A stretch of DNA of 64,000 bases from an uncultured Desulfobulbaceae bacterium (GTDB lineage Bacteria > Desulfobacterota > Desulfobulbia > Desulfobulbales > CALZHT01), in assembly GCA_945787445.1 (NCBI GenBank), contig CALZHT010000001.1:22460-86459 (forward strand), in the 5' to 3' direction. The notes below the pieces were generated by a model that did no database searches, was not told the origin of the DNA, and saw nothing but the letters and a program-made list of their open reading frames with translations. Below, piece by piece: positions 31,028 to 47,876 of the stretch. The stretch's first letter is position 1; every line of letters starts with the position of its first letter. The position numbers and the translations under genes were made by a program.

Positions 31028-31197
31028 GGGTACACCTTTTTCAAATTGAATAGTCTACGTCCTGACAATATATAGTCAGAAAATGATAGAAAAAGAAGGT
31101 ATTACACAGAATTATTTTGCGAAACCACGATGTATTGATTAATAACATTAGCAATGGAAAATATTCAATCTCAGTATTTCATGTTAGGGAAACACTC

Positions 31198-31734
31198 GTG
31201 AAATACCAGAAAATTCTTATAAAAAAAGATAATATCGTCGAGGTTCAATGCCCGAAATGCTTGACGAGAAGAACTTTTCCCGCGTCCAAGCTCGGCATAC
31301 AGAAACATTATGTAAAATTGAAATGTACCTGTGGTTTTATCTTTCTGGTCGAACTCGAATTCAGACAAAAAAATCGTAAAACAACCAACCTTGAAGGCTA
31401 TTTTTTCAATCTTTCTCTGTCGTCACGCATCGGTGATCCTATTAAGAAAATATCGGAAACCCATTTATATCATGACGGCAGATTTTTAAAGCCCGCCAAT
31501 TGCCAAATTAAAAGCATGTCAAAAAGTGGAGTGGGTTTTATCACCAAAAAACCACCCCCGCATGGTATCGAAACAGGGAACGAACTGCGCCTCATATTTA
31601 TCCTTGATAATTCCGCCAAAACCGAAATTATCAAAAAGGTTGTCGTGCGCTATGTGAAACAAAACTATATAGGGTGCGAGTTTGTTGAAAAAGACAAATA
31701 CGACACCGCTCTCGGCTTTTACTTCCTTTCCTGA
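31198..31734 (+). CDS. Zinc-ribbon plus PilZ-like domain protein
   Basis: CPKC...CTCG, then FRQKNRK, SMSKSGVGF, IGCEF; GTG at 31198 taken as start. Confidence 0.7.
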   Translation: MKYQKILIKKDNIVEVQCPKCLTRRTFPASKLGIQKHYVKLKCTCGFIFLVELEFRQKNRKTTNLEGYFFNLSLSSRIGDPIKKISETHLYHDGRFLKPANCQIKSMSKSGVGFITKKPPPHGIETGNELRLIFILDNSAKTEIIKKVVVRYVKQNYIGCEFVEKDKYDTALGFYFLS

Positions 31735-32478: not shown

Positions 32479-32833
32479 ATATATTCTCCTCCGTTCTCTT
32501 AGAGTTTTTTTCGATGCGCAAAAAGAATATTATACCTGCACCATGATAAATCAACAAAATAAAGCGGCTCTGCCTCACCATTGATTGACAGTAAGCCAGT
32601 AAATAACGTAAAGTTTCCTCTATGCAAAATGCAAAAGATAAAGGTATTATAACGGGATACAAAGTCATGGAAAGAAGGGTATATTTCCGAAAAGCTAATG
32701 ACCTATTCACCAAAATGGCGGGCCAATGCTCGTTATTATGCGGCAGAGGAATCCCGCACGAAAAGAAAACCATAGTTTCCGAGAAAAATAGTTAGTGGAA
32801 AATCACAAATCAATAAATATGGAATAGCAACCA

Positions 32834-33886
32834 ATGGCAGGAAATACATTTGGCACGGTTTTCAGGATTACAACATGGGGGGAATCCCATGGTACAGCGA
32901 TCGGGGCTGCCATTGACGGGTGCCCGCCCGGCCTGGAACTCTCCCCTGCAGATATTCAGAAAGACATGGACCGGCGCCGTCCCGGTACAGGTGGGCCGGC
33001 AAGCCCGCGCAAGGAGCCGGACAAGGTGGAAATCCTCTCCGGCACCTTTGAGGACCGTACCACCGGGACCCCCATTTCCCTGATAATTTATAACAAGGAT
33101 GCCCACAGTAAATCCTATGATCACTTGAAAACCGTCTTCCGGCCGGGTCACGGCGACATTACCTATCTCAAGAAGTACGGTATCCGTGATCATCGCGGCG
33201 GCGGCCGGGCATCGGCACGGGAAACCGCCGCCCGGGTGGCGGCAGGCGCGGTGGCCAGAAAAATACTGGCCGTCCACAATATTTCCGTACTGGCCTATAC
33301 CATTGCCATGGGCGGTATTACCACGGAGAAACGGGCTGTTGCCGAAATTACCCAAAACAGGCTATGCTGCCCTGATAATGAAACCGCCGCCAAGATGGAA
33401 AAAAAAATCGACCAGGTCCGCAAACAGGGAGATTCCCTTGGCGGCATTGTAGAAATAACAGCAAGCGGATGTCCAGCAGGTCTTGGCGAACCTGTGTTTG
33501 ACAAACTTGATGCCGAGCTTGCCAAGGCCCTCATGTCCATAGGTGCGGTAAAAGGGGTGGAAATCGGCTCGGGTTTTGCAGCAGCTCATCTCACTGGTTC
33601 CCAGAATAACGATCCCATTACTCCGGCAGGCTTTGCCTCAAACCGGTCCGGCGGCATCCTCGCAGGTCTATCAAATGGCGATGATATCATTGCCAGGGTT
33701 GCTGTAAAACCTATTCCTTCGATAAGCATTGAGCAGCAAACCATAGACCTTGATAATAAGCCGGTACCTGTTAAAATTGGCGGGCGGCACGATATCTCTG
33801 CCATACCCAGAATCATTCCGGTTTGTGAAGCCATGGTATGCCTGACCCTTGCAGATCACTACTTGCGGCAAAAAGCGATCACGTGA
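32834..33886 (+). CDS. aroC: Chorismate synthase
   Basis: TWGESHG, RPGHGD, GGGRASARETAARVAAGA, GRHD. Confidence 0.96.
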   Translation: MAGNTFGTVFRITTWGESHGTAIGAAIDGCPPGLELSPADIQKDMDRRRPGTGGPASPRKEPDKVEILSGTFEDRTTGTPISLIIYNKDAHSKSYDHLKTVFRPGHGDITYLKKYGIRDHRGGGRASARETAARVAAGAVARKILAVHNISVLAYTIAMGGITTEKRAVAEITQNRLCCPDNETAAKMEKKIDQVRKQGDSLGGIVEITASGCPAGLGEPVFDKLDAELAKALMSIGAVKGVEIGSGFAAAHLTGSQNNDPITPAGFASNRSGGILAGLSNGDDIIARVAVKPIPSISIEQQTIDLDNKPVPVKIGGRHDISAIPRIIPVCEAMVCLTLADHYLRQKAIT

Positions 33887-33939
33887 TATGCAAAAAATTA
33901 CTACGAAATGTCTAGGCCAAATTCTCCAGGAAGTTCTTG

Positions 33940-35562
33940 ATGGTCAATAAACGTCAAAAAAATTCCATAAAAAACATTTGGATGGTAACCAGAGAATACG
34001 ACGGTATCGCCGGAGCTGGAGGCGTAAAGGATGTTTCCAAACAACTGGCAGATGCCCTTGCCAACAAGGCAAAAAAAATAAGCGTTATTCTCCCATTATA
34101 CGGCTTTATGAATCCCGAGGAGCATGGCTTCAAGCCTCTGGACATCACCTTTGATGTGGATATGGACTATGTCGGTCTTGAGCGCCAGGAACATGTACAG
34201 TTATGGGAGCGACATAAGAATAAGGTGCGAATCTATCTGGTTGATAGCCAGCGGTTTCGAGAAAAAAGAAGCATCTATACATATACGGCAGAAGAGGAAG
34301 CGGAGAACCCGGCCAACCTTCAGGGAAAAGGGCATAGCGATTATTTCGCCATGAATGTTCTGCTGCAAAAATCAGCTATCGCTGCCATGATCCACCTTGA
34401 TGAAAGGCCGGACATCATTCATTGCCAGGACGGCCATACCGCTATTTTGCCTGCCCTGACCAGAGAGACAGAAGGATACCGCCATTTTTTCAATAAAACA
34501 GGTTTTGTCGTTACGATTCACAATGCCGGTTTCGGACACCATCAGGAAGTGGGAGATCTACCCTTTGCCCAGACCATCTGTGGCTTGCCATCCCGCACCA
34601 TCAAGAGCAGCTTGCTTGATAATATGTTTGACCCTTTTCTTGCTGCTGCTCCCCATGCTGTTTTAAACACGGTCAGCGAAAACTATGCCCGTGAGCTCCA
34701 GGAAACGTCTGATGATGCTCTCACCGGCTGGCTGGGCCACCACCTGAAAAGCAAAGGTATACAACTGGCAGGTATAACCAATGGTATTAATCCGGAGAAT
34801 TATAATCCTGCAAACCCTAAAAAAATGGGGACATTCGCTGCTTTTGATCCTCTGGCAGGAAAGTTCGCAGGAAAAAAGAAATGCAAACACAACTTATTAG
34901 AGGCACTGAATAACCACAAGCACGACCACATTCTCCAGTTTGGAAATTTGGAAAATAAAGACAATTGTCCACTGTTTACTTTTATTGGCCGGCTCTCTGT
35001 GCAAAAAGGAGTGGATAAACTTGTTGAAGCCCTGGAAGCCTTGTTTCACACGGAAGATAACTTTCAGGTTCTGGCCCTGGGCACAGGCACCAAAGACCTG
35101 GAAGGTGACCTTGTCCGTTTGACAACATCTGCAGAGAGGCAAGGCAGAATATGCGTGCTTCTTGGATATGACCCGGTACTAGCCAATCAAATTTATGCTG
35201 CGGGAGATTTTTTTGTTATACCATCACAGTACGAACCTTGCGGATTAACGGATTTCCTTGCCCAGTTGTTTGGCAATGTTCCCATTGTCCACCATGTAGG
35301 GGGACTTGTTAAGGTCATAAACGGTGTTACAGGTTTTACTTATGACGATCACAGCTCTGCTGCTCTTATGGCAAGCATGCAGAAAGCCTTGCAGGTTTAC
35401 CGCAATTCCCCTCAAACCATAAAAAAGCTGCAACGGGCCGCCGTAAAACATCTGCATGAAAATTATACATGGGACAAAGTTGTAGAGCGGTATCTTGTCC
35501 TGTATCAAGAGGCCCTTGCCCTTGCAGGATTAACAAAAGTAAATATTGCTCATATAAATTGA
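33940..35562 (+). CDS. glgA: Glycogen/starch synthase (GT5), divergent
   Basis: HCQDGHT, TIHN, NTVSENYA, GITNGI, GRLSVQKG, PSQYEPCGL; N-terminal motif is AGAGGVKDV instead of KTGGLGDV. Confidence 0.8.
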   Translation: MVNKRQKNSIKNIWMVTREYDGIAGAGGVKDVSKQLADALANKAKKISVILPLYGFMNPEEHGFKPLDITFDVDMDYVGLERQEHVQLWERHKNKVRIYLVDSQRFREKRSIYTYTAEEEAENPANLQGKGHSDYFAMNVLLQKSAIAAMIHLDERPDIIHCQDGHTAILPALTRETEGYRHFFNKTGFVVTIHNAGFGHHQEVGDLPFAQTICGLPSRTIKSSLLDNMFDPFLAAAPHAVLNTVSENYARELQETSDDALTGWLGHHLKSKGIQLAGITNGINPENYNPANPKKMGTFAAFDPLAGKFAGKKKCKHNLLEALNNHKHDHILQFGNLENKDNCPLFTFIGRLSVQKGVDKLVEALEALFHTEDNFQVLALGTGTKDLEGDLVRLTTSAERQGRICVLLGYDPVLANQIYAAGDFFVIPSQYEPCGLTDFLAQLFGNVPIVHHVGGLVKVINGVTGFTYDDHSSAALMASMQKALQVYRNSPQTIKKLQRAAVKHLHENYTWDKVVERYLVLYQEALALAGLTKVNIAHIN

Positions 35563-35604
35563 ATCGCAAGAAACGGAAAGGGAAACAAAAAAAGGAGGTC
35601 ACGT

Positions 35605-36609
35605 ATGGCTGTACGAATCGGAATCAACGGTTTTGGGAGAATTGGCCGCAACATATTCAGGGCCATTGACAAAGACAAGACTTTTGCAGATCTCGAGGTC
35701 GTGGCCATTAACGACCTTACGGACAAGACCACATCCGCACATCTGCTCAAATACGACTCGGTCATGGGAGTGTACGACAGGGATGTAAAAGCGACCGACC
35801 AGGGACTCGAAGTGGATGGCAACAACATAGAAATATTCAGCCACCGAAACCCTGCGGATATCCCTTGGGGCAACATTGGTGTAGATTATGTCCTAGAATC
35901 CACCGGTTTGTTCACCAGTGACGAAAAGGCCCAGGCCCATCTTGATGCCGGAGCAAAAAAAGTGATCATTTCCGCCCCAGCAAAGGGCAATGTCAAAACC
36001 ATTGTTATGGGGGTTAATGAACATGAATATGATCCGACCGAACACCATATCATTTCAAACGCTTCCTGCACCACAAACTGCCTTGCTCCTTTTGCCAAAG
36101 TTATCATGGACCGGTTCGGCATCAAACGGGGTCTTATGACCACCATTCATGCGTACACCAACGACCAGCGCATCCTTGACTTCCCACACAGCGATCTGCG
36201 GCGGGCCAGAGCCGCCGCTTTATCAATGATACCGACAAAAACGGGCGCGGCAGCGGCCGTGTCTCTTGTGATCCCTGAATTAAAAGGAAAATTTGACGGC
36301 ATGGCAATCAGGGTTCCGACCCCCAATGTCTCGGTTGTTGATGCGGTTATGGAAGTTGAAAAAGAAACCACGGTTCCGGAAGTCAATCAGGCCTTGAAAG
36401 AGGCGGCCAACCGCTATCTCGGCTATTCGGAAGAACCTCTTGTCTCCATTGACTATCAGGGAAATCCCCATTCTTCAGTGGTGGACGCCATGTCAACCAA
36501 AGTGATAGGATCCATGGTCAAGGTTCTTAGTTGGTATGACAATGAATGGGGCTACTCAAACAGGATGCTCGACTTGATCCTGCTGATGGAATCCCTCAAG
36601 CCTCTATAA
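35605..36609 (+). CDS. gap: Glyceraldehyde-3-phosphate dehydrogenase, type I
   Basis: [28 protein letters not shown]; RBS AAGGAGG. Confidence 0.97.
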
Positions 36610-36659
36610 ACAGTGGATAAAGGACGAACAAACAACTACCCCCCATTGTCCATATAAAC

Positions 36660-39600
36660 ATGAGCATGAGCAGCCAAAGCAAGCTTGTCATAGAGTCCGA
36701 TGCCCTGAAGGCAAACCTCCTGGAAACAGCGGTCGAAGATGTTTTCATTGACCCTTCCTATGGAGTTCTTCTGGATATTGCTGCGAACTATAAAGGGATC
36801 CTCAACAATCTCAATGAATTGCTCTATGAAGTGAGCCATCCTTTCCGCAACTGGAACCTGATTCTCCCCAGACTGCGGGCCTTTGTCCTCAAAAACTGCG
36901 ACATGTACCGCCGCCATGAGCGCGGACCCGAGGCTTTTGCAAAATTCTCCCTTATCTTTTTTGCTGCCATAGACGGATCCAAAAAAAATGAAGCCCTTCT
37001 CTTTCAAGCCATTGAATCTTTCTTGGGTTATGCGGATAAATTGATCAGTTCCCTTGAGCCGCAAGATCTCCCGGTTTATGAACAGGCTTTGGCCTCCTTT
37101 TTTTCCCAGCTGCATGACCTCAATGAAATAGAAATGATGTATGTCGTCCAAGGCCATCATCCGGTAAAAAAAATAAGTCTTCGTTTGCTTGACCTGGGGG
37201 AGAGGCTAGCAACTACCAAGGGCAAATATAACTTCACCCCTCTCGTCCGATTGATGAAAAGGATCCTGTCCTTGAACTATCAATACTGGCTGAAAGAAGA
37301 TGATCCCTTGCCATGGTTCACCACCCAGTGTGGTGAAATGTGCCGGGGCTGGGAGGCGGGAAAACTCTTTAATGCCATATCCCATAACCAGATCCGCAGC
37401 CATTCCCAGAACCTTGAAAAAATGGAAGAGGGATCATCTTCCGAGAGTTTGATGGCCATTTTAGAGCTTCCTTCCCACATGGATATTGTCCGGTTCTATA
37501 AACAGGTGCCGGAAAAGCTCATTGAAGAAATGGGCCCTGGGGAAGAAATAGAAAAAGAGGGTTTATCGGTGGACCGCTTTTCAGAAAACCGCAAACTCCT
37601 TTTTCTCTTCCGGATCATGGAAACCGCCGGCCTCTTCCTTATTCACGAAGAAACCCTGCGGGAGATCAACCGCAGCCTGGTCCAGCTCATTCGCCAGCAG
37701 ACCTTTGAGGAGATAGAACGATTCCTGCTCACCACCTTTAAACTATTGAAGCGTAATGTCCGGAAATACCCCCACACCTCTTTGCAATGCATCCAGGTAC
37801 TGGGAACAGAGGTCTTTAATCGAGGAAACAGCAGGCTTGTCGAAGCTTTTTTGTGGGAAACCGTCCGGTTCGGATTTCAATATGCCAATGTCAGCGGGGT
37901 TAATGAAGACTGGCAGCCCATTGCCAATCCAGCGCATCTTGCCAATATCCGGGTGTGGCTCAACCTGATCATACAGGAGCCCAAATGGTGCGCTACCTTG
38001 TTTTCCGCTCTGATCATCAATATCAAGCTCACCGATACTTGTATAAAGGATACAGATCTTTTCCAAAAAGATATCAGCCAGCTCCTCAACCATCCCATAG
38101 GACCTGTATACAACTTGGTCAAACAGTTTGCCAAGCTCATGCCGGTCTTTTACAATGAGATTGGCGCAGAAGGGCTGCTGCGCGACGTTTCCACCGATGT
38201 TGATGAAATTCACAACCGCAAAGACAAGCTCATCCATTTTCTCCGCAAACAGAGCCACGTTGAAAGCAGCAACCTGATTGTTGATTTTATCGAGGCCATC
38301 TTTGCGTTCTGGAAAACCAGAGACAAAAACGTGCTCGCCCCGTTTCTCCCGCAAGAAGTCTTGCGGGACATAGAATCCCACGGTCCCTATGTCGATGACA
38401 TGCACCGCTTGATGCAGAAGATTCTTAGGCTGCCCAATATTCGCGACCTTGAAGATCTGCTGGAATGGGAAGACCATAAACTTGAAATGTTTCTGGCAAC
38501 CCAAAAAGATATTCCGGAGAAGGAACGTCAACGATTCCGGCTCATGATCCGGATGTACAATCTCCTGCACCAGAAATACAACCTTGGCTTGCAGGAACTT
38601 CGCCACCAGTTGGAGCAGGCTGCCAATTCAGGCTTTCCGGAAATGGAGCAATTGCTCGGTGACCTTGAAATATGCGACACTTTCCAATGCCTGGCTGCCC
38701 TGTTGGATCACCTGGAAAATCTCAAAGAGATTATTTTAAGCGAGAAGCAGTATGAGGCCAAAGAAGATATCTATTTCAAAAGGCATATTGCCGTTGATAT
38801 CCCATCGGTGTATGGCCGCTACCGGGAAAGAAAATTCGATGCCCTGGGATTAACTTTCAGGCTGGAGAACCTCGCCAATATCTATCTGGAAAAATTGCCG
38901 GCCACCATAAACCTTTCCTTCATCACCAAAGCCACCTTCAACCGGATTATCAAATGTTTGAACCTGTATTTGCGCGCCTTACGAATTGACGGAGTCTCGA
39001 GTCGAAAACTGGAAACGTATCTTTCGCTTCTCTCCAGCTCATCTGATATCAAGCGTTTTTCCTATACCCAATATATTGATATCATCAGGGGCCTTTCAGA
39101 AGGAGTAAAGGACGTCATCTACGCCTATTACACCAATATTCACCAGAACAATCTTTCCATCATCATTCCCCAGATCGGCCACCAAAACCTGCTGCCGAAA
39201 TTCAAATCCCTCTGGGAGGAAACCGGCAAACAGTTCCATGACCCAGCTGACATCGCGGGTACGAAATTATCAACTAAAGAACAGAAGGGAGCCAAGGTCG
39301 ATCCTGTTCTTTCCCAGCGTATTTTCGGGTTGTCAGAATCATTCATGCGAGACCTTATCGCCGGCACCTTTGGTCTGCAGCTATTGGATAATTTCATTAC
39401 TCGGATATACCAGACCCTTGAGCATCAAAAGGATCTCCTGGACGAAAAAAGCCTCGATCTTCTGATGACCTATAACCCGGATAATGCAATCAGCTATTTA
39501 CACAAACACAACCAGCACACCAACAATCTGATCCATCTCGGCAACAAGGGTTATAATCTTGCCCAGCTTGCCATGGAAGGCAAACCGATCCCTTCGGGTT

Positions 39601-41018
39601 TTATTATCACCACGGAGATATACCGGTGCTGGCCGGTAATCAAAAACTTCAGCCGGGCCCGCAATGAATTGATGAACCAGATCCGGCAATCATTAAACGA
39701 GCTGGAAAAAGCCACCGGCCGCCAGTTCGGTGATCCGGAAAATCCCCTGTTGCTCTCGGTGCGCAGCGGTGCCGCCATTTCCATGCCCGGCATGATGGCA
39801 ACCATTCACAATGTCGGCCTGAATCAAGAGATCGTGCAAGAATTCGCCAAACACTCCGGCAAAGAATATCTGGCCTGGGACAACTACCGCCGTTTTCTGC
39901 AATCTTGGGCGATGAGCAAAGGAGTAGGGCGTGAGGTATTCCAAAAACTTATGAATGGCGCCAAAAAACAGCATGGCGTCACGGTCAAAAAAGATTTCAC
40001 CCCGGAACAGATGAAGGAACTGGCCCTTAGTTACCAAAAAACCGTGCGTAATCTCGGGATCGGTTTTCCGGATGATCCCTGGCTGCAGCTCACTGGTGCG
40101 GTGGAAATGGTGCTGGATTCCTGGAATACCAATAAAACCAGGGAATACCGGTCTTTGATGGATGTGTCCGAATCCTGGGGCACGGCGGTAATTGTGCAGG
40201 TCATGGTGTTCGGCAATTTAAGCCAAGAGGCGGGCAGCGGCGTCTCCTTTACCGCCCACCCCTATAGAAAAGTAAGCAGGGTGGCGCTGTGGGGCGATTA
40301 CGCGCCGGGCGATCAAGGCGAGGATATTGTCAGCGGCCTGGTAACCACGCACCCCGTCTCGGTTGAACAGGCGGAAATTGACGGGCGTTCCAAGGAAAAC
40401 ACCCTGGAACTCCGTTTTCCTGAGGTATACAATGAGCTGTTACGGCTCTCCCGTGAATTGGTCTATGAAAAAAGCTGGAATCCCCAGGAAATCGAGTTCA
40501 CCTTTGAAGGCCCGAAGGCAGAGGATCTTTATATCTTGCAGACTCGTGACATGATAACCATCAAAAAGAAGGAGACCTTCCATGTCTTTGAAGAGTCTGG
40601 CGGTTTTGAAAAATACATCCTTGGAAAAGGTATTGGGGTAAGCGGCAGCGCTTTATCCGGCCGGGCGGTGTTTACTGCGGATAACATAAAAGCCCTCCGC
40701 CAGGAAGACCCAGACACTCCTCTCATTCTTATCCGCCAGGACACCGTGCCTGAGGATATCAAGGAAATCTCCATGGCGGACGGCCTGCTCACCGCCCGGG
40801 GCGGACAAACCTCCCATGCTTCGGTAGTTGCCCTGCGGCTGGATAAGACCTGCATGGTCGGCTGTGATACCCTGAAGGTTTTTGAAACCCGAGAGTACGC
40901 TGAAATCGGCGGGCAGGTCATCCGGTTTGGTGATCCGGTCAGCATCGACGGCCGCAAGGGCCTACTCATAAAAGGCATGCACCAGACAAAAAAGGAAATG
41001 CACATCCTGCCCATGTAA
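36660..41018 (+). CDS. Large PPDK-related dikinase: ~950-aa unknown N-terminus, ATP-grasp domain and phospho-His swivel domain; no pyruvate-binding barrel
   Basis: GNKG (~aa 961), GFIITTE, LLSVRSGAAISMPGMM, QGEDIVSG, EIEFT, LQTR, TARGGQTSHASVVA (His ~1386); the protein ends 66 aa after the His. Confidence 0.85.
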   Translation: MSMSSQSKLVIESDALKANLLETAVEDVFIDPSYGVLLDIAANYKGILNNLNELLYEVSHPFRNWNLILPRLRAFVLKNCDMYRRHERGPEAFAKFSLIFFAAIDGSKKNEALLFQAIESFLGYADKLISSLEPQDLPVYEQALASFFSQLHDLNEIEMMYVVQGHHPVKKISLRLLDLGERLATTKGKYNFTPLVRLMKRILSLNYQYWLKEDDPLPWFTTQCGEMCRGWEAGKLFNAISHNQIRSHSQNLEKMEEGSSSESLMAILELPSHMDIVRFYKQVPEKLIEEMGPGEEIEKEGLSVDRFSENRKLLFLFRIMETAGLFLIHEETLREINRSLVQLIRQQTFEEIERFLLTTFKLLKRNVRKYPHTSLQCIQVLGTEVFNRGNSRLVEAFLWETVRFGFQYANVSGVNEDWQPIANPAHLANIRVWLNLIIQEPKWCATLFSALIINIKLTDTCIKDTDLFQKDISQLLNHPIGPVYNLVKQFAKLMPVFYNEIGAEGLLRDVSTDVDEIHNRKDKLIHFLRKQSHVESSNLIVDFIEAIFAFWKTRDKNVLAPFLPQEVLRDIESHGPYVDDMHRLMQKILRLPNIRDLEDLLEWEDHKLEMFLATQKDIPEKERQRFRLMIRMYNLLHQKYNLGLQELRHQLEQAANSGFPEMEQLLGDLEICDTFQCLAALLDHLENLKEIILSEKQYEAKEDIYFKRHIAVDIPSVYGRYRERKFDALGLTFRLENLANIYLEKLPATINLSFITKATFNRIIKCLNLYLRALRIDGVSSRKLETYLSLLSSSSDIKRFSYTQYIDIIRGLSEGVKDVIYAYYTNIHQNNLSIIIPQIGHQNLLPKFKSLWEETGKQFHDPADIAGTKLSTKEQKGAKVDPVLSQRIFGLSESFMRDLIAGTFGLQLLDNFITRIYQTLEHQKDLLDEKSLDLLMTYNPDNAISYLHKHNQHTNNLIHLGNKGYNLAQLAMEGKPIPSGFIITTEIYRCWPVIKNFSRARNELMNQIRQSLNELEKATGRQFGDPENPLLLSVRSGAAISMPGMMATIHNVGLNQEIVQEFAKHSGKEYLAWDNYRRFLQSWAMSKGVGREVFQKLMNGAKKQHGVTVKKDFTPEQMKELALSYQKTVRNLGIGFPDDPWLQLTGAVEMVLDSWNTNKTREYRSLMDVSESWGTAVIVQVMVFGNLSQEAGSGVSFTAHPYRKVSRVALWGDYAPGDQGEDIVSGLVTTHPVSVEQAEIDGRSKENTLELRFPEVYNELLRLSRELVYEKSWNPQEIEFTFEGPKAEDLYILQTRDMITIKKKETFHVFEESGGFEKYILGKGIGVSGSALSGRAVFTADNIKALRQEDPDTPLILIRQDTVPEDIKEISMADGLLTARGGQTSHASVVALRLDKTCMVGCDTLKVFETREYAEIGGQVIRFGDPVSIDGRKGLLIKGMHQTKKEMHILPM

Positions 41019-41031
41019 AGGCACATCACCC

Positions 41032-42168
41032 ATGATTATTGGCATACCAAAGGAAGTAAAAAACAATGAATACAGAGTATCCCTTATTCCCGCCGGAGCA
41101 AAATCCCTGGTTTCCCATGGCCATACGGTACTCATTGAGAAAGGCGCCGGTCGGGGATGCGGCATAAGTGACAACGAATTCAAAAAGGCCGGCGCCCGCA
41201 TCGTATCCTCCGCAAAGGAGGTTTTCGGCCGAGCCGAGATGATCATCAAGGTCAAAGAACCAATGCCGAAGGAATTCTCCTTACTGCGGCCGGACCTTAT
41301 TCTGTTTACTTTTTTGCACTTGGCGCCTTTACCGGAACTGACGGATGCCCTCCTGCAACAAAAGGTGATTGGCATCGGTTTTGAAACAGTGCAGCCTGAC
41401 GACGGCTCTCTGCCTTTGCTCGCCCCGATGAGCGAAGTAGCAGGCCGCATGGCTGTCCAGATCGGCGCCCATTATCTGGAAAAAAACAACGGCGGCAGGG
41501 GAGTATTGCTGGGCGGCATCACCGGAGTTGAAAAAGGCCATGTCCTGATTCTCGGCAGCGGCAGTGTGGGTTCCAATGCAGCACAAATGGCTGTTGGCTT
41601 AGGTGCTTCCGTTACTGTTCTAGGAAAAAGCCGCGCCCACTTAGCGCACTTGGAAAATTCTTTACACAGCAGAATCAATACGCTTATTTCAAATGAGCAC
41701 AATATTGAAGAGGAGCTCAAAAAGGCCGATCTGGTGGTCGGAGCAGTGCTTATTCCCGGCGCCCAGGCTCCCAAGCTCATCACCAGAAAAATGCTTTCCA
41801 TCATGAAAAAAGGGGCTGTCCTTGTTGATGTGTCCATCGACCAGGGCGGTTGCGCAGAAACCTCAAAGCCCACCACCCATTCTGATCCGGTGTACGAAGT
41901 TGACTCCGTTCTCCATTACTGTGTAGCCAATATGCCGGGCGCTGTTCCTAGAACGTCAACATTTGCACTGGCAAGCGTAACCCTTCCCTTTGCTCTTGAA
42001 ATCGCCGACAAAGGCGTTGAGCGCGCCCTCACTGAAAACAGGGCGTTACAAAGAGGGGTGAATGTGTACAAAGGCAAGCTGGTGAATAAAGACGTGGCGG
42101 CAGCGCAGGGCAAAAAATTTGCAGAGTTTCCGAAAAGCCACAAAGTCCCATTGGATAATCTTTTTTAA
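41032..42168 (+). CDS. ald: Alanine dehydrogenase
   Basis: GIPKEVKNNEYRV, KVKEP, FTFLHLA, PMSEVAGR, IDQGGC, YCVANMPGAVPRTST. Confidence 0.95.
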   Translation: MIIGIPKEVKNNEYRVSLIPAGAKSLVSHGHTVLIEKGAGRGCGISDNEFKKAGARIVSSAKEVFGRAEMIIKVKEPMPKEFSLLRPDLILFTFLHLAPLPELTDALLQQKVIGIGFETVQPDDGSLPLLAPMSEVAGRMAVQIGAHYLEKNNGGRGVLLGGITGVEKGHVLILGSGSVGSNAAQMAVGLGASVTVLGKSRAHLAHLENSLHSRINTLISNEHNIEEELKKADLVVGAVLIPGAQAPKLITRKMLSIMKKGAVLVDVSIDQGGCAETSKPTTHSDPVYEVDSVLHYCVANMPGAVPRTSTFALASVTLPFALEIADKGVERALTENRALQRGVNVYKGKLVNKDVAAAQGKKFAEFPKSHKVPLDNLF

Positions 42169-43436
42169 ATTTTGGAAACCGCAAATATAGGAAATCCAAT
42201 TGTCACGTTTGTTCCCTTACCTGGAAGACTATCTATCTTTATACTGCCTCGATGTTCTTCTACAATCTGTTTTACGATGGGAAGTCCCAAGCCAATTCTA
42301 TTTGGCTTAGTGGTAATAAAAGACTCAAAGATATTTTCAAGCTTTTCCGACGGGATCCCTGTCCCATTATCCTCGATCTCGACCACAAAGCTTTTAAAAG
42401 TTTTGTTAATTCTGATAGCCACATCTCCTCCACTTTCGGAGGCTTCTAAAGCATTCCTGAGAATATGAATCAAAGCTACTTTAAGCATTCCTTTATCAGC
42501 CTCGATCATGAATGGTCCATTTTCTGGTTCAAATTTTAACCCAACATCTTTTTTGGCAGATTCATTCCTTAAAATTTCAATACTTTCTCTGATCATTTCA
42601 ATCAGGTCCTCGGACTTGAGGTAAAATCTCCTCTGTGCAGCCAACCTTTCAAAGTTATTGACAATTTCCTCCAGCTTCCGAATTTGCTCAAGAATAGTTT
42701 CGATTTTTGCTGTTGTTTTTTCATCGGATGGCATCTTTTTGACTAATGATTTGACTAGGCCCCCCACAATGGTTGCAGGATTTCTGATCTCATGAGCCAC
42801 TTTTAAGGCCATCTCACTCATAGCTCTCTCTACTGCAACTGCCTCCAAGTCTCGATTTAGATGGAATAGTTCCACATTAATGCGGTCGAGTTCCTCGTTT
42901 TGCCTGGACCTTTCCTCTAACATTCTAAGAAGCTCTTCATGTTTTGCTCTCAAATTTTCAAGGCAGGAATCCTCTGTTTTAGCGAATAAGTTTTCTCCCG
43001 TCTTTCCTTCTCCTTTATCCATTTCTTCGAAACGCAAACGAGATCCCCACTTGTGGATTCGCAATTTCGAACTTCCATGAGGTTCTTCTATCTCTATGTG
43101 ATCCATAATTTTCTTTAAACCCTGCAAAATCTTCGGAGACTGTTCATCCTTAGGAATATCATAATTCCTTTGGGGGTCAGAAAAATTTTCAATGGTTATT
43201 TCCATTCCCCCTTTTCCTTGAGGGCTCCTAATCAAATTCCAGCATATCTTCCCTATGTTATTCTTTACTATACTCTGGGCTGTTCCTAAGACATTTTCTG
43301 TGATCTGTTCCACCTCAGGGGCACTAAAACGGCACATCTTTGCAATTATCTCGGATTTTTCCCTTATAATGGGAAGATCCTTATCACTTCTAAAGATAAA
43401 AGAAATAAGGTGGAGTCGTTCTTGTATTGTTACCAT
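42165..43436 (-). CDS. Soluble sensor histidine kinase with degenerate RsbT-like N-terminal domain
   Basis: H-box AHEIRNP, N-box RNALEA, DNGTGI, GLGLPIV; no TM segment; coiled coil before HisKA. Confidence 0.85.
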   Translation of the reverse strand: MVTIQERLHLISFIFRSDKDLPIIREKSEIIAKMCRFSAPEVEQITENVLGTAQSIVKNNIGKICWNLIRSPQGKGGMEITIENFSDPQRNYDIPKDEQSPKILQGLKKIMDHIEIEEPHGSSKLRIHKWGSRLRFEEMDKGEGKTGENLFAKTEDSCLENLRAKHEELLRMLEERSRQNEELDRINVELFHLNRDLEAVAVERAMSEMALKVAHEIRNPATIVGGLVKSLVKKMPSDEKTTAKIETILEQIRKLEEIVNNFERLAAQRRFYLKSEDLIEMIRESIEILRNESAKKDVGLKFEPENGPFMIEADKGMLKVALIHILRNALEASESGGDVAIRINKTFKSFVVEIEDNGTGIPSEKLENIFESFITTKPNRIGLGLPIVKQIVEEHRGSIKIDSLPGKGTNVTIGFPIFAVSKI

Positions 43437-43582
43437 CGAAACTCCCCCTGGTCTGAATAGCTATCACGAAAAATGACAAACAGCTTTATTCAAGGCCTAT
43501 TTTGATCTCTTCCTAGCTCTACACTTTGCATGTTCATTTTCTTAAGTCAAAAGACATATGCAAAGGTTATGGACTCGTTGCA

Positions 43583-43813
43583 TCATTCCAGCAATCCAAC
43601 AATTGGGATTCTTTCCAGCAGGTCCTCATTATGGGGCGCTTGTTGAATTGCTTCGGAAAGATCTTCTCCCGCGCTATGCAACACCTGATGTTTGCCGCCC
43701 TTCCAATGCCAGCTTCCGGATACATCGTAGACTTTCCCCTGAAACGCTATATAAGATGGAGCACCATGTAATCCATTACATCTGCTCAAATCTTTTTTGG
43801 TAATCTTTTTCAT
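43583..43813 (-). CDS. Cytochrome b5-like heme/steroid-binding protein
   Basis: NG...YIAFQGKVYDVS..W.GGKH...AGEDLS......APH motif. Confidence 0.85.
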   Translation of the reverse strand: MKKITKKDLSRCNGLHGAPSYIAFQGKVYDVSGSWHWKGGKHQVLHSAGEDLSEAIQQAPHNEDLLERIPIVGLLE

Positions 43814-43843
43814 CTGCCGTTTCTATAAATGGGTGTAAAAAAG

Positions 43844-43875
43844 TAAGGGTGCCTAAGATACGGGAGGCACCCTTA
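43844..43875 (-). terminator. Probable terminator downstream of the dpsL pseudogene
   Basis: Stem TAAGGGTGCCT / AGGCACCCTTA followed on the minus strand by CTTTTTT. Confidence 0.6.
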
Positions 43876-43885
43876 TAAACCCTCA

Positions 43886-44437
43886 TCACTTAAGGAATTT
43901 TGAGACAAACGGTGATGTGTCACCGCGCCGCATGAAGTGGCCGGACGGTCCTTCGCCAAGAAATTCTGAAAACCACGATTCATGCTCAATTTCTTCGTTC
44001 AGAATGGAAAGCGACAGGTCATAGGTCCTATGGTCCTTACCGGCCGTCATGTTGCAGATCTGGGTGTATCCCCGCACTGCGCATCTTTCCGCTTCTACCA
44101 GAACCTTCAGCATGGCATGCACATCCCGCGGGTCTTGGGGAAGACTTGCCGGCGGACAGGCTGAAATGTCATGAAAATCATTCATTCGTGCCGGCAGTTC
44201 GCCACCAAGCTCATAAATTCTCGGTACCAGGGCCTCAAAATGATTCCGATCTTCTATACGGGCAACTTCGGCGATCTTTTTTATCCCCTCACCATCAAGG
44301 CCTATCAGGTTGACCCTCAGGATCGTTTAGTAATAGAAGGTTGTCAGCTCCGCGGAAGCGTTTTTCACCGGCAGCTCCAATAACTGATCAACCTCGATTC
44401 CTGCCTTTTCCACCATTTCCCGTGCGACTCTTGCCAT
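43886..44437 (-). pseudogene. DpsL-type (thioferritin) ferritin-like DNA-protection protein interrupted by an in-frame TAA
   Basis: RBS AAGGAGGT and ATG 44437: MARVAREMVEKAG...AELTTFYY*TILRVNLIG...ARIEDRNHFEALVPRIYELGG...ACPPA...AERCAV...EEIEHE; stop at 44327-44329 (codon 37), frame otherwise continuous. Confidence 0.88.
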
Positions 44438-44633
44438 GACATACCTCCTTTGTTAATGCATTAATGGTTTCGTTACATCAGTGAAGAAATGAGAACGAAA
44501 AACCAATTTTTCTTCATTGTTATCCAGAATCTTTATCTGTTTTATCGAATGGAATCTCCTCTTCGCGCAACTTTAAAATGTGCTGTTTTTTTTCAGCGTA
44601 TAGTCTGACTAAAATTGATGTCAATGCAAAAGA

Positions 44634-44734: not shown

Positions 44735-44900
44735 AAAATGGAAGTTTACGGAATTATCTTAGGACGGCTAAAAGGGATTAAAATATTAATTTGTAGCCTT
44801 ACATTGCAAGGGAATGACCAATACTTATAGTATAGAGTAGGAATATTGGTGATAGTGCTTCATTTAGTTCTGTATCACCAAATAATACATGTGGGGTGCC

Positions 44901-46562
44901 ATGAGTATTGATACCAAAGAGAGCGGCATTCTGGAAAATCTCTATTTTCATTCGTTCAACAAGCAGAAATTTGCTACGTTCTCACCATTTATACTTGACC
45001 CCAAAACCGAAGATATTATCAAGAGCTATGAAGAGCTGATCAAAGAATATCCCCCTGAAAAACTTGAAAAAGAGGGTAAAATCCCTGACCGGTTATGGCA
45101 CGGCCTCAAAAAAATAGGGTTGTTCGGTTTGAACATACCGGAAGAGCATGGGGGGCAAGGATTGGCTCTGAACCAGTATCTCAAAGTGCTTGAAACCATA
45201 GCACGCCGGGATTTGGCCCTGGCCATCATTCCCACCGCCCATCTTTCCATTGGCATTAAAGGGATCCTCCTTTTCGGCAATAATGAGCAGCAAAAGAAAT
45301 ACCTGCCCCGGGCGGCAACCGGGGAAATGATTTTCGCCTATGCGCTCACCGAGCCAAACAGAGGATCCGATGCCCAGCATATTGAAACCAGGGCAGACCT
45401 TTCTGCAGATGGCAAATATTACATGCTGAATGGCATGAAAACCTATATCACCAACGGCGGCTATGCTGACGGCCTTACTGTGTTCGCTCAGCTTGATCCG
45501 GATCAAGCTGGGGATATGGGCGCTTTTATTGTTGAAACAGCCTGGGATGGTGTACACGTAGGCAAACCCATGCCCAAGATGGGGCTTACCATCAGTTCCA
45601 CCACCTTGATTGCCTTTACAGATGTGAAAGTACCTGTGGAAAATATGTTGGGTAAGCCTGGCGACGGATTTAAGATCGCCATGACCATTCTCAACTATGG
45701 CCGTTTGGGGCTGGGTGCGGCTTCAGTTGGGGTGATGAACCAGGCAATTGCCGACATGATCAAAAGGGCATCAACCCGAACCCAGTTCGGTGTCCCTATC
45801 AAAAATTTTGAACTGATTCAGGAAAAAATCGTCAACGCCAGGGTAAGGAGTTTTGCCGCCGAAGCCATGACCCTTTTCACCGCCCACCTGCTCAAAGATG
45901 CGCCGACCGCCAACGTGGCCACTGAAAGTTCCCATACCAAATTGTTCGGCACCACCAGGGGTTGGGAGACTCTGTATGACGCCATGCAGGTTGCCGGCGG
46001 GGCCGGATACTTGTCATCCTTACCGTATGAAAAGCGCCTGCGGGATTTCCGGGTATCAACTATTTTTGAGGGCACCACTGAAATCCACTCCATGTATCCG
46101 ACCGCGCACCTCTTGCGGGTCCTTGGCAAGGAGTTCCAGAAAATCGGCAAAAGCAAATTGAAAATAATGCTTTTCATGCTGACGGCAATAATGAAATCCC
46201 CCAAAATCCACTTGGCTTTTGAAGATACTGTGATGCGGGAGGCTCTATCTTTTGTGCAAAAATCCGTGAAAAAGATACGGTATCTTCTGTTCAGAGGCCT
46301 TGCCCTTTACGGTGAAAAAATAATCTCCAGAGAATTTTTCCTGCGCAGAATCACCCATCTGAGCCTTTACGTATACGCGCTTATCAGCATGCTGGCCAAG
46401 ATGCACGCTGACCAGCAACAGGGACAAGGAAATGATATTGATCCGAAGCTGCTGGGCTATTTCCTGGAACAGGCAAAAGGGTCGTTTACAGTAAACAACC
46501 GTTATCGCGAAGGAAAACTTGAGGAGTTCCATAGTGATATCTTCAAGGAATTGGCAGAGTAA
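44901..46562 (+). CDS. fadE: Acyl-CoA dehydrogenase (long-chain, ACAD9/VLCAD-like)
   Basis: AYALTEPNRGSDA, NGMKTYITNG, R.QFG, IFEGTTEI; start 44889 or 44901. Confidence 0.88.
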   Translation: MSIDTKESGILENLYFHSFNKQKFATFSPFILDPKTEDIIKSYEELIKEYPPEKLEKEGKIPDRLWHGLKKIGLFGLNIPEEHGGQGLALNQYLKVLETIARRDLALAIIPTAHLSIGIKGILLFGNNEQQKKYLPRAATGEMIFAYALTEPNRGSDAQHIETRADLSADGKYYMLNGMKTYITNGGYADGLTVFAQLDPDQAGDMGAFIVETAWDGVHVGKPMPKMGLTISSTTLIAFTDVKVPVENMLGKPGDGFKIAMTILNYGRLGLGAASVGVMNQAIADMIKRASTRTQFGVPIKNFELIQEKIVNARVRSFAAEAMTLFTAHLLKDAPTANVATESSHTKLFGTTRGWETLYDAMQVAGGAGYLSSLPYEKRLRDFRVSTIFEGTTEIHSMYPTAHLLRVLGKEFQKIGKSKLKIMLFMLTAIMKSPKIHLAFEDTVMREALSFVQKSVKKIRYLLFRGLALYGEKIISREFFLRRITHLSLYVYALISMLAKMHADQQQGQGNDIDPKLLGYFLEQAKGSFTVNNRYREGKLEEFHSDIFKELAE

Positions 46563-46588
46563 CCTCATAGAGGAGATAAAGCAGACCA

Positions 46589-47875
46589 ATGCCCTCAAAA
46601 ATAGCAATCACAGGCGGAGTACGAACTCCCTATATCCATGTGGACACGGTATTTAAGGACTATACCGCGGTGGACCTCGGACGATTGGCGGTCACGGAGG
46701 TTATTGCCCGCAGCGGTATTGATGCAGGTGCGCTTGATTCGGTTATTGTCGGTAATGTGGCCCAGCCCGTGGAAGCGGTGAACATCGCCCGGGTTATTGG
46801 ACTGATGTCTGGAGTACCTGAACATGTGCCTGCCTTTACCGTCCACCGCAATTGCGCTTCCGGTATCCAATCGGTAATAGGTGCGGCTCAGTCCATTGCC
46901 ACCGGAGAAGCTGAACTTGTACTGGCGGCCGGGGTGGAGTCCATGTCCAACATTCCCTTGTTTCTTTCCAAGAAATTTAAGGATGTTCTCAGCCATTATT
47001 GGCATGCGAAAACCCTTAAAAATAGAATCAGGGCGCTTATGGAATTACGCCCGCGAGATTTTATCCCCCGAATCGGTCTGTTGCTCGGCCTCTCCGACCC
47101 CACCTGCGGCCTCAATATGGGACAGACAGCAGAAGTCTTGGCGCGCGAGCTTAAGATCAGCCGGGGGGCTCAGGACGAGTTCGCCCTCCTGAGCCATCAA
47201 CGAGCTATTGCTGCCCAGAAACGGGGCCGATTTGCCGGCGAGATCATGCCGGTTCTCATCCCGCCTGATTATGAAAAAGCGATCGATTACGATAATGGGG
47301 TGCGGCCGGAGGAAACCATGGAGATACTGGCCCGGTTACGGCCGGTTTTTGACAGAAAATACGGCACCATCACGGCGGGTAATTCCGCCCAGATAACCGA
47401 TGGCGCTGCCGCGGTGATCTTGGCAAGCGAGAAAGCTCTGACAAAATATAACCTTGAGCCGCTGGGCTATATCGGGGAGCATGCCTTTGCCGGTCTATCC
47501 CCAAAACGCATGGGACTTGGGCCGTCATATGCCACCTCTATTCTGCTGGAAAAGACCGGGATTGATTTCAATGATATCGGCCTCATCGAAATGAATGAAG
47601 CGTTCGCAGCCCAAATCATTGCCAATGAGATGGTCTTTTGTGATGACAAGTGGTCCGACCATTTTCTAAACCGCAAGGCCATTGGCTGCATTGACCGCAA
47701 TATTATGAATGTGAACGGCGGCGCCATTGCCATGGGGCATCCCGTGGGGTCGAGCGGCACACGACTCATTCTGACTTTGCTGTTGGAAATGCAACAGCGG
47801 TCCGTTGACCTGGGCCTGGCCACCCTGTGTGTGGGCGGCGGTCAGGGTGCGGCTCTTTTTCTCGAGAGGGCTTGA
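46589..47875 (+). CDS. fadI: 3-ketoacyl-CoA thiolase (FadI-like)
   Basis: RNCASG, NEAFAAQ, GHPVGSSG, LCVGGGQG. Confidence 0.9.
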   Translation: MPSKIAITGGVRTPYIHVDTVFKDYTAVDLGRLAVTEVIARSGIDAGALDSVIVGNVAQPVEAVNIARVIGLMSGVPEHVPAFTVHRNCASGIQSVIGAAQSIATGEAELVLAAGVESMSNIPLFLSKKFKDVLSHYWHAKTLKNRIRALMELRPRDFIPRIGLLLGLSDPTCGLNMGQTAEVLARELKISRGAQDEFALLSHQRAIAAQKRGRFAGEIMPVLIPPDYEKAIDYDNGVRPEETMEILARLRPVFDRKYGTITAGNSAQITDGAAAVILASEKALTKYNLEPLGYIGEHAFAGLSPKRMGLGPSYATSILLEKTGIDFNDIGLIEMNEAFAAQIIANEMVFCDDKWSDHFLNRKAIGCIDRNIMNVNGGAIAMGHPVGSSGTRLILTLLLEMQQRSVDLGLATLCVGGGQGAALFLERA

Positions 47876-47876
47876 G

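Follow-up and report, generated by a model that had tools for sequence, protein, structure and literature searches.

Domain structure of X

The window analysed here is a stretch of 64,000 nucleotides from an uncultured Desulfobulbaceae bacterium (contig CALZHT010000001.1), and this report concerns a single gene within it, referred to below as X, which encodes a protein of ~160 kDa with a PPDK-like catalytic module behind a very long N-terminal region. The decisive clue to X turned out to be its strict partnership with a special glyceraldehyde-3-phosphate dehydrogenase (GAPDH), a divergent long type which we call gap2, and not its glycogen-synthase-like neighbour. The gene and its parts, all on the forward strand, are as follows.

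36660..41018, +, X, barrel-less PPDK-like dikinase, 1452 aa, ATG start (open reading frame (ORF) list, translation, Pfam, NCBIfam)
36660..39224, +, N-terminal domain (N-domain), aa 1 to ~855, predicted all-alpha with one beta-hairpin (AlphaFold2 (AF2) model, Foldseek, invariant columns)
39297..39509, +, connector to the ATP-grasp domain, aa ~880-950, with three conserved helices (pLDDT and secondary structure of the AF2 model)
39510..40550, +, PPDK-type ATP-grasp domain, aa ~951-1297 (Pfam PPDK_N, alignment to C. symbiosum PPDK, invariant columns)
40614..40991, +, phospho-histidine swivel (PEP-utilizers mobile) domain, aa ~1319-1444 (PF00391, PPDK alignment)
40815..40817, +, codon of His1386 in the GGQTSH motif, counterpart of the catalytic His in PPDK GGMTSHAAV

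The translation is free of internal stops and forms one single ORF, and a chance ORF can be dismissed because more than 1600 homologues share its length and architecture. The PPDK motifs beginning near residue 960, the GGQTSH histidine at 1386 and the end of the protein 66 residues later, all named in the original prediction, were confirmed at their positions: GNKG at 961, VRSG at 1034, MPGMM at 1042, QGEDIVSG at 1219, EFT at 1279, LQTR at 1293 and GGQTSH at 1381, with the swivel motif reading GGQTSHAS around His1386. Pfam detected PPDK_N (PF01326) at 1002-1306 (99 bits against a cut-off of 27) and PEP-utilizers (PF00391) at 1354-1434 (57 bits), and no Pfam match fell within residues 1-950. 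In a phmmer comparison with PDB sequences, residues ~954-1297 and ~1319-1444 aligned to residues 15-338 and 390-513 of C. symbiosum PPDK, with E-values of 1e-86 to 2e-88. Since the aligned part of PPDK stops at residue 513, X ends where the PPDK linker to the barrel starts, and judged by this alignment X is equivalent to PPDK residues 1 to ~515 with ~950 extra residues in front. The C-terminal module contains 103 invariant columns in 21 sequences (46-70% identity), including, in its own numbering, K13, R85, the D/E/Q residues of the ATP-grasp and T434/S435/H436 of GGxTSH. Homology shows X to be a predicted ATP-driven phospho-histidine dikinase, whose C-terminal ~500 residues would run the first partial reactions of PPDK.

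The start of X is uncertain by a few codons, because the sequence before the annotated ATG (window 36630-36662) has no Shine-Dalgarno-like purine run, a second ATG lies two codons into the gene, and conservation among homologues starts only near residue 13. A promoter and terminator scan of 32500-44500 gave counts at the level of shuffled sequence. Among the sequencing runs, no RNA carrier was listed, and DNA word shares were at most 0.10.

The absence of the pyruvate barrel, on which the original prediction was built, holds for both of its signs: PEP-utilizers_C (PF02896, the barrel profile) gave no match in X at E<=0.1, and the GTNDL motif was not found in a motif search of the translation. 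The NCBIfam models score X accordingly low, with 387 bits on TIGR01828 (PPDK; cut-off 843.45), 64 bits on TIGR01418 (phosphoenolpyruvate (PEP) synthase; cut-off 739.75), 30 bits on NF041857 (rifampin/rifamycin phosphotransferase; cut-off 999) and 12.6 bits on TIGR01417 (PTS Enzyme I; cut-off 341.7).

These data raise the question of whether X could still be a pyruvate/PEP dikinase, either through a non-homologous pyruvate site in its N-domain or through a barrel supplied in trans. Its C-terminal module is closest to genuine PPDK, and its gene lies among gluconeogenic genes. However, the N-domain is all-alpha and contains no barrel, and a normal, barrel-bearing PpsA-length gene is present in the window's own genome (G000, 95.6% complete) and in five complete X-bearing genomes (G030, G104, G264, G106 and G278), so that nothing is missing and the pyruvate-to-PEP step can do without X. 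The profile search for PEP-utilizers_C that had been suggested together with the prediction revealed no stand-alone barrel gene in G000, G030, G104 and G278, where the sole match sits in a PpsA-length frame of 816-863 aa; in G106 and G264, ordinary Enzyme-I-length barrel proteins occur besides X. Supply of the barrel in trans was therefore rejected, the PpsA-length gene being the only barrel in four of the six genomes. A pyruvate/PEP dikinase would also leave the strict link to gap2 without a reason, and we regard it as very improbable.

The genome of the window contains further PPDK_N genes on contigs C22 (17449-18354, 1194-aa frame), C68 (27890-29023, 1003-aa frame) and C171 (7127-7816, at the contig end). 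As G000 has one PEP-utilizers_C match only, these genes would also be without a barrel, and the organism thus appears to carry several other barrel-less dikinase-like paralogues.

The N-terminal domain

Residues 1-950 contain 14.2% Leu and 8.0% Glu, and their AF2 model, based on a 64-sequence alignment (pLDDT 90.2, pTM 0.87), is almost entirely helical, in agreement with the earlier description of this region as Leu/Glu-rich and probably helical. The model shows 48 helices, a sole beta-hairpin (strands 701-708/715-722) and weak loops at ~290-305 and ~860-880; a second model of residues 305-860 agrees with it (pLDDT 88.5). Residues 886-949, in the connector, form a separate conserved match segment in most genomes of the 301-genome search described below. 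Foldseek comparison of both models with 350,542 PDB chains gave no match at E<=1e-3, and the top-ranking structures were importins, ATR and designed repeat proteins with template-modelling (TM) scores of 0.10-0.21. A profile of 21 N-domains reached at best E=0.29 against PDB sequences, Pfam scans of the individual members found nothing credible (best single member E=0.024), and an ESM Atlas search was uninformative (best score 0.82). By the proposed fold search, the N-terminus is thus not a permuted barrel: apart from one hairpin, the modelled region is all-alpha, and Foldseek matched it to no solved structure. The models indicate a helical domain of ~855 residues without a recognisable solved relative.

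The N-domain is strongly conserved, with 70 invariant columns, mostly polar, among 21 sequences of 34-68% identity; in residues 305-860, 31 columns were still invariant after homologues with 29-36% identity had been added. The invariant residues are rich in H/D/R/K/E/S/T and are grouped in three segments, with the motifs KDTDLF (464), NEIGAEG..R..ST..DE (499-516), HFLRKQ.H.E (526-535), KY (639-640) and K-R-H..(D)IPS.YG.Y.E...F (707-726). To judge by its sequence, the domain is unlikely to be a bland scaffold, and its conservation is as expected of a functional site. Of the novel acceptor-binding module suggested for the N-terminus, the novelty is borne out by the lack of a known fold, while binding of an acceptor is something that we infer. 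A complex prediction of the N-domain (13-860) with the swivel domain scored 0.00, and because its controls were not run, this value counts neither for nor against binding.

Size and distribution of the family

Members of the X family were defined by the combination of the N-domain, PPDK_N and PEP-utilizers in a protein of ~1350-1540 aa. A word-seeded search that scored 8000 candidates yielded 1604 X-like proteins (E<=1e-3). Of these 1604, the top 120 are mostly 1410-1458 aa long and 63-69% identical to X; five are shorter, three of which are labelled partial or hypothetical. An exhaustive HMMER search with residues 1-950 revealed 578 clusters at 50% identity, 199 of them at E<=1e-30, and the full-length members are mostly 1350-1540 aa long. 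X itself carries the N-domain motifs of the family (464, 499, 526 and 707) and is accompanied by gap2 in its genome. In a scan of one genome per species, at least 598 stretches matched and at least 589 were confirmed; the best 80 of them all bear Desulfobulbales-type names (Desulfurivibrio, Desulfocapsa, Desulfobulbus, Candidatus Electrothrix, Electronema). Distant members are labelled Miltoncostaeaceae/Thermoleophilia, Myxococcota and Dehalococcoidia. In three of six distant representatives tested, all three of them metagenome proteins (P0165, P0171 and P0199; loci L145-L163), the N-terminus is a hemerythrin (HHE) domain, a module that typically senses O2, iron or redox state.

To place X in its own phylum, we used a sample of 301 genomes from 201 genera. 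The N-domain was matched in 86 of them, in 60 genera, when weak matches are included; 80 of the 86 matches were strong, near-full-length and contained in a single ORF (E<1e-40), and the other six comprised four weak matches (E 1e-4 to 4e-5), one partial match and one fragment of 183 aa. In one genome (G069:C1:682947-685593), X is split into two adjacent ORFs with frames of 652 and 809 aa.

The databases name the homologues PPDK, PEP synthase or 'PEP/pyruvate-binding domain-containing protein', which is the mislabelling that had been foreseen. Such a PPDK or PEP synthase annotation is wrong for X and can falsely complete the pyruvate-to-PEP steps of pathway reconstructions. A full-text literature search, with supplements outside its scope, found no paper on the X family or on a 3-phosphoglycerate (3-PG) dikinase. 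The X family is large and uncharacterised.

Coupling of X to gap2

The gap2 gene of the window's own genome lies on contig C113, directly upstream of pgk, and it was used as the query against the 301 phylum genomes (E<=1e-90). Matches were found in 86 genomes, including all 80 with a strong X. A gap2-like gene without X was present in only six of the remaining 221 genomes, four of which are just 61-79% complete. The two complete ones, G112 and G279, possess intact gap2-like genes with no remnant of X within 9 kb. That of G112 lacks the large C-terminal insertion and has ETETTF in place of the ETHTRT motif described below, and that of G279 is aberrant and has ETYAAP. A pseudogene had been considered for G112 from stop counts, and this was rejected since the translation is an intact though aberrant ORF.

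Another important question is whether the two genes also lie side by side. By a hand tally of coordinates, 64 of the 70 strong X genomes from orders other than that of the window have gap2 on the contig of X and no more than 4 kb away from it. Among the six exceptions, five have the genes on separate contigs of fragmented assemblies, and in G206 they are 445 kb apart. In several families, gap2 is convergent with X, i.e., the association was kept through inversions. In the window's own order, gap2 sits away from X, and in G000, G220, G278 and G190 it was found next to pgk. An apparent gap2-PGK fusion in G170 (835-aa open frame) was rejected, as it consists of two genes in different frames.

The pairing extends to distant relatives. 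With the hemerythrin-type homologue P0171, 28-32% identical to X in the N-domain, we found 24 metagenome loci. The 13 that exceed 6 kb were examined; gap2 directly follows X in 12 of them, the 13th ending at X. Related genomes are not independent samples in these counts; the pattern spans about 60 genera and reaches down to ~28% identity. Duplications were also seen: G109, with a reported contamination of 4%, has two X-gap2 pairs (contigs C41 and C139), and on G106:C1 gap2-pgk is present twice in nearly identical form, near ~505-508 kb and near ~1777-1780 kb.

Properties of gap2

On TIGR01534, gap2 proteins score 331-340 bits, just below the cut-off of 367. The alignment shows that the catalytic Cys and His are kept, together with the equivalents of Thr179, Arg195 and Arg231, the residues that hold both substrate phosphates in GAPDH. 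Relative to canonical GAPDH, gap2 carries five insertions, and the X-associated type has a signature of its own, consisting of ETHTRT and an insertion of 25-45 aa. The exact ETHTRT motif occurs in 23 of the 25 readable X-associated gap2 sequences (the variants are LNHTRT and ETHSRT), in neither of the two gap2-like genes of X-less genomes, and in none of 13 canonical GAPDHs. The canonical N-D-L is replaced by N-x-G-R. As the Asp of N-D-L, which presumably favours NAD, is gone, the sequence suggests that gap2 uses NADP(H).

The complete 1.8-Mb genome G030 contains gap2 as its sole Gp_dh_C match. In that genome, gap2 is thus the working housekeeping GAPDH alongside PGK. Together with the kept residues, this marks gap2 as a functional phosphorylating GAPDH.

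Gene neighbourhood

Within the window, the gene order is aroC (32834-33886), a GT5 glycosyltransferase, a canonical gap, X and alanine dehydrogenase, all on the forward strand. The direct neighbours are as follows.

33937..35562, +, glycogen-synthase-like GT5/GT1 glycosyltransferase, 541 aa (Pfam; TIGR02095 283 bits against a cut-off of 328)
35605..36609, +, canonical type I GAPDH, 334 aa, 50 bp before X (Pfam; TIGR01534 446 bits against a cut-off of 367)
41032..42168, +, alanine dehydrogenase, 13 bp after X (Pfam)

To see which of these neighbours are conserved, 20 loci (±8 kb around X) were picked for diversity out of the 86 phylum genomes. A canonical GAPDH, 57-83% identical to that of the window, lies beside X in 12 of the 20 loci, gap2 (405-459 aa, 31-38% identical to the window GAPDH) lies just downstream of X in 13, and neither is near X in three. 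In the best 80 Desulfobulbales loci, the canonical gap is upstream of X in 49, and of the 31 other loci, six extend less than 1.2 kb upstream of X. Alanine dehydrogenase follows X in only four of these 80 loci (L068, L071, L072 and L098) and is not a conserved neighbour.

The GT5 gene, which falls under every GlgA cut-off, bears on the possibility that X phosphorylates another acceptor at the triose/storage-carbon node, such as glycerate, glyceraldehyde, dihydroxyacetone or a glucan (as glucan water dikinase does), the link to GAPDH then existing at the pathway level only. The superfamily has swapped acceptors repeatedly (rifampin, glucan, phenol, flavonoids), the aroC-GT5-gap-X block is present in most of the best 80 Desulfobulbales loci, and tpiA belongs to the X operon of G106. 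However, GT5 and aroC are near X only in the three closest of the 20 phylum loci, and the block is absent from other orders, i.e., this linkage is limited to the window's order and close kin, while the gap2 link is family-wide. Moreover, Pfam detects no carbohydrate-binding module in X, and both phosphate sites are kept in gap2, as expected for glyceraldehyde 3-phosphate/1,3-bisphosphoglycerate (1,3-BPG). Another acceptor of this kind is therefore an unlikely explanation in our view.

The operon of G106 (L049) reads rapZ-GNAT-gap-X-gap2-pgk-tpiA, and in two distant lineages, L049 and L057 (G030), genes for hpf (S30AE), rapZ and a small GNAT acetyltransferase directly precede (gap-)X-gap2. Proteobacterial rpoN operons keep ptsN/npr at the hpf-rapZ place. 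This position, together with the homology between the swivel domain and the His domain of Enzyme I (PF00391), would fit a role in which X, driven by ATP, takes the place of PTS Enzyme I and supplies a His phosphorelay (HPr/NPr, EIIA-Ntr). A His-phosphorelay protein was the second function that the original prediction had offered, and it has lost ground: neither PTS-HPr (PF00381) nor PTS_EIIA_2 (PF00359; EIIA(Ntr)) was found in G000 at 95.6% completeness, so that an Enzyme-I-like relay would be left without a visible acceptor. In addition, G106 and G264 already own the Enzyme-I-length barrel proteins mentioned above. We consider such a relay function highly implausible, the least probable of the readings weighed here.

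Two other features of the window were recorded on the forward strand. At 31117-31734, there is a small protein with a zinc-ribbon-like N-terminus (weak match) and a PilZ c-di-GMP-binding domain, and at 44889-49991 there is a beta-oxidation cluster encoding an acyl-CoA dehydrogenase (557 aa), a thiolase (428 aa) and a fused enoyl-CoA hydratase/3-hydroxyacyl-CoA dehydrogenase (728 aa).

Proposed function of the X-gap2 pair

We propose that X is a reversible 3-PG/1,3-BPG dikinase that works with gap2 and perhaps channels its product to it; this is a tentative reading, to which we assign a probability of roughly 0.38. It is based on the intact and conserved catalytic module, the conserved N-domain, the phyletic coupling and adjacency to gap2, and the presence of a functional gap2 with its own signature. 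In such a mechanism, ATP, with inorganic phosphate (Pi) or water, would phosphorylate His1386 on the swivel domain, and the phosphoryl group would then pass to a non-barrel substrate site made or organised by the helical N-domain, with X acting as a dedicated partner of gap2. The likeliest reaction would be the reversible conversion of 3-PG to 1,3-BPG, an acyl phosphate that gap2 would then reduce, and the stoichiometry would involve AMP (with pyrophosphate (PPi)/Pi). The reaction could give gluconeogenesis a more strongly driven and possibly channelled step, or it could run backwards and regenerate ATP from AMP. A chemical precedent exists in succinyl-CoA synthetase, where a phospho-His passes its phosphate to a carboxylate and an acyl phosphate is formed.

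Several observations weigh against this proposal. Both the choice of 3-PG as the acceptor and the assignment of the acceptor site to the N-domain are suppositions of ours. PGK is present in 294 of the 301 phylum genomes, including all 80 X-bearing ones and G000, and pgk often belongs to the same operon as X. Since PGK coexists with X, X replaces nothing obvious, and as gluconeogenesis by the standard PGK and GAPDH pair is thermodynamically feasible, there is no obvious thermodynamic need for it. In the window's order (G000 and nine genomes), gap2 is unlinked from X, and Desulfobulbus- and Electrothrix-type loci have no GAPDH near X. Free 1,3-BPG would serve any GAPDH, and a tie to one subtype fits a protein-protein relation (channelling or regulation) equally well. 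In the models, the N-domain resembles no other structures than alpha-solenoid scaffolds, which are usually protein binders, and the hemerythrin fusions and the upstream GNAT/rapZ/hpf genes in two lineages have a regulatory flavour. Two simpler roles were tried and rejected: a replacement of PGK, given that PGK occurs in all 80 X-bearing genomes, and a bypass of a missing enolase, given that enolase is present in G000.

The main alternative is a regulatory one, in which the ATP-grasp/His module would read the adenylate and PPi/Pi state as His1386~P while the N-domain scaffold binds the gap2 tetramer. In this case, X would control gap2 either allosterically or by passing phosphate to it, the gap2-specific His in ETHTRT being one conceivable target, and redox state or O2 might act as the signal. 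We give this alternative weight, although it is still a doubtful one, because PGK is present everywhere and leaves no pathway gap to fill, no thermodynamic need is evident, X strictly co-occurs with one GAPDH subtype that has its own insertions and ETHTRT, the N-domain resembles scaffolds only, and the hemerythrin sensor fusions and the GNAT, rapZ and hpf genes hint in the same direction. The loss of ETHTRT in both complete X-less genomes with a gap2-like gene also agrees with it. On the other hand, to our knowledge all characterised enzymes with ATP-grasp and swivel-His domains phosphorylate small molecules or glucans, and none is a protein kinase; Enzyme I does phosphorylate a protein, but with PEP and a barrel. 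Furthermore, so many invariant charged residues, gathered in three short stretches of the N-domain, resemble a small-molecule site more than an interface, and 160 kDa is large for the control of one enzyme.

A more specific form of the 3-PG dikinase proposal is that X and gap2 form a complex acting as an ATP(AMP)-dependent 3-phosphoglycerate reductase or, in reverse, as a GAPDH-coupled ATP synthase working from AMP and PPi/Pi, where 3-PG would receive the phosphate of the swivelling His~P within the active site of GAPDH or beside it. We regard this form as distinctly doubtful. If it were true, hundreds of anaerobic species, sulfur-disproportionating and cable bacteria among them, would bypass free 1,3-BPG and PGK by an enzyme so far unknown in central metabolism.

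Lower glycolysis and gluconeogenesis are regarded as fully known, and yet about a quarter of the genomes sampled from a large phylum (80 of 301), as well as scattered members of further phyla, encode a strongly conserved, enzyme-like protein of 160 kDa with a one-to-one tie to a special GAPDH. This tie suggests an undescribed step or control point in these pathways. Should X phosphorylate 3-PG or control GAPDH, metabolic models would miss a step or switch with another ATP/AMP/PPi balance in sulfate reducers, cable bacteria and sulfur disproportionators, and the finding would be weightier if the pair carries out a new reaction of central metabolism. The N-domain adds a confidently predicted fold for which no relative has been solved.

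Comparison with known systems

The closest relative of the catalytic part is PPDK (EC 2.7.9.1; C. symbiosum 1KBL/1DIK), with which X shares alignable ATP-grasp and swivel domains and the catalytic His of GGxTSH. In contrast to PPDK, X is without the C-terminal PEP/pyruvate TIM barrel and adds the helical domain of ~855 aa and a connector of ~95 aa. PTS Enzyme I has a homologous swivel His domain (PF00391), but it works with PEP and a barrel and lacks the ATP-grasp domain, and its acceptor HPr was not found in G000.

Glucan and phosphoglucan water dikinases (GWD/PWD) are also dikinases that have long additional N-terminal regions and no barrel, and the window has a storage-glucan gene close to X. 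In GWD, the nucleotide domain comes after the His domain, and the protein includes carbohydrate-binding modules. X differs in that no such module was detected in it, and its glycogen-synthase-like neighbour is conserved in one order only.

A functional analogy, and no more than that, connects X-gap2 with PGK and GAPDH, ProB/ProA and ArgB/ArgC, as each pairs a phosphotransferase with a GAPDH-family dehydrogenase, in the case of X often in a gap-pgk-tpi operon. PGK and the amino-acid kinases have no sequence or fold relation to X, which is expected to form AMP via phospho-His.

Rifampin phosphotransferase (RPH; PMC4844700) joins three domains, namely an ATP-grasp domain, a substrate domain that is not a barrel and, at the C-terminus, the swivel His domain. 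X follows the same three-domain logic as RPH and its kin, the flavonoid- and phenol-phosphorylating enzymes. It departs from RPH in the extra domain, which is N-terminal in X and has a different fold without a PDB match, whereas the rifampin-binding domain of RPH lies between the ATP-grasp and His domains. Moreover, the ATP-grasp domain of X is PPDK-like and not RPH-like, and the substrate domain is ten times the usual score distance away. By its homology, X should resemble PPDK, PEP synthase and RPH in the first half-reactions. Having no barrel, low model scores and a third domain that differs in position and predicted fold, it fails as a member of all three families. We infer that X is a dikinase whose third domain is new and whose dedicated partner is a GAPDH.

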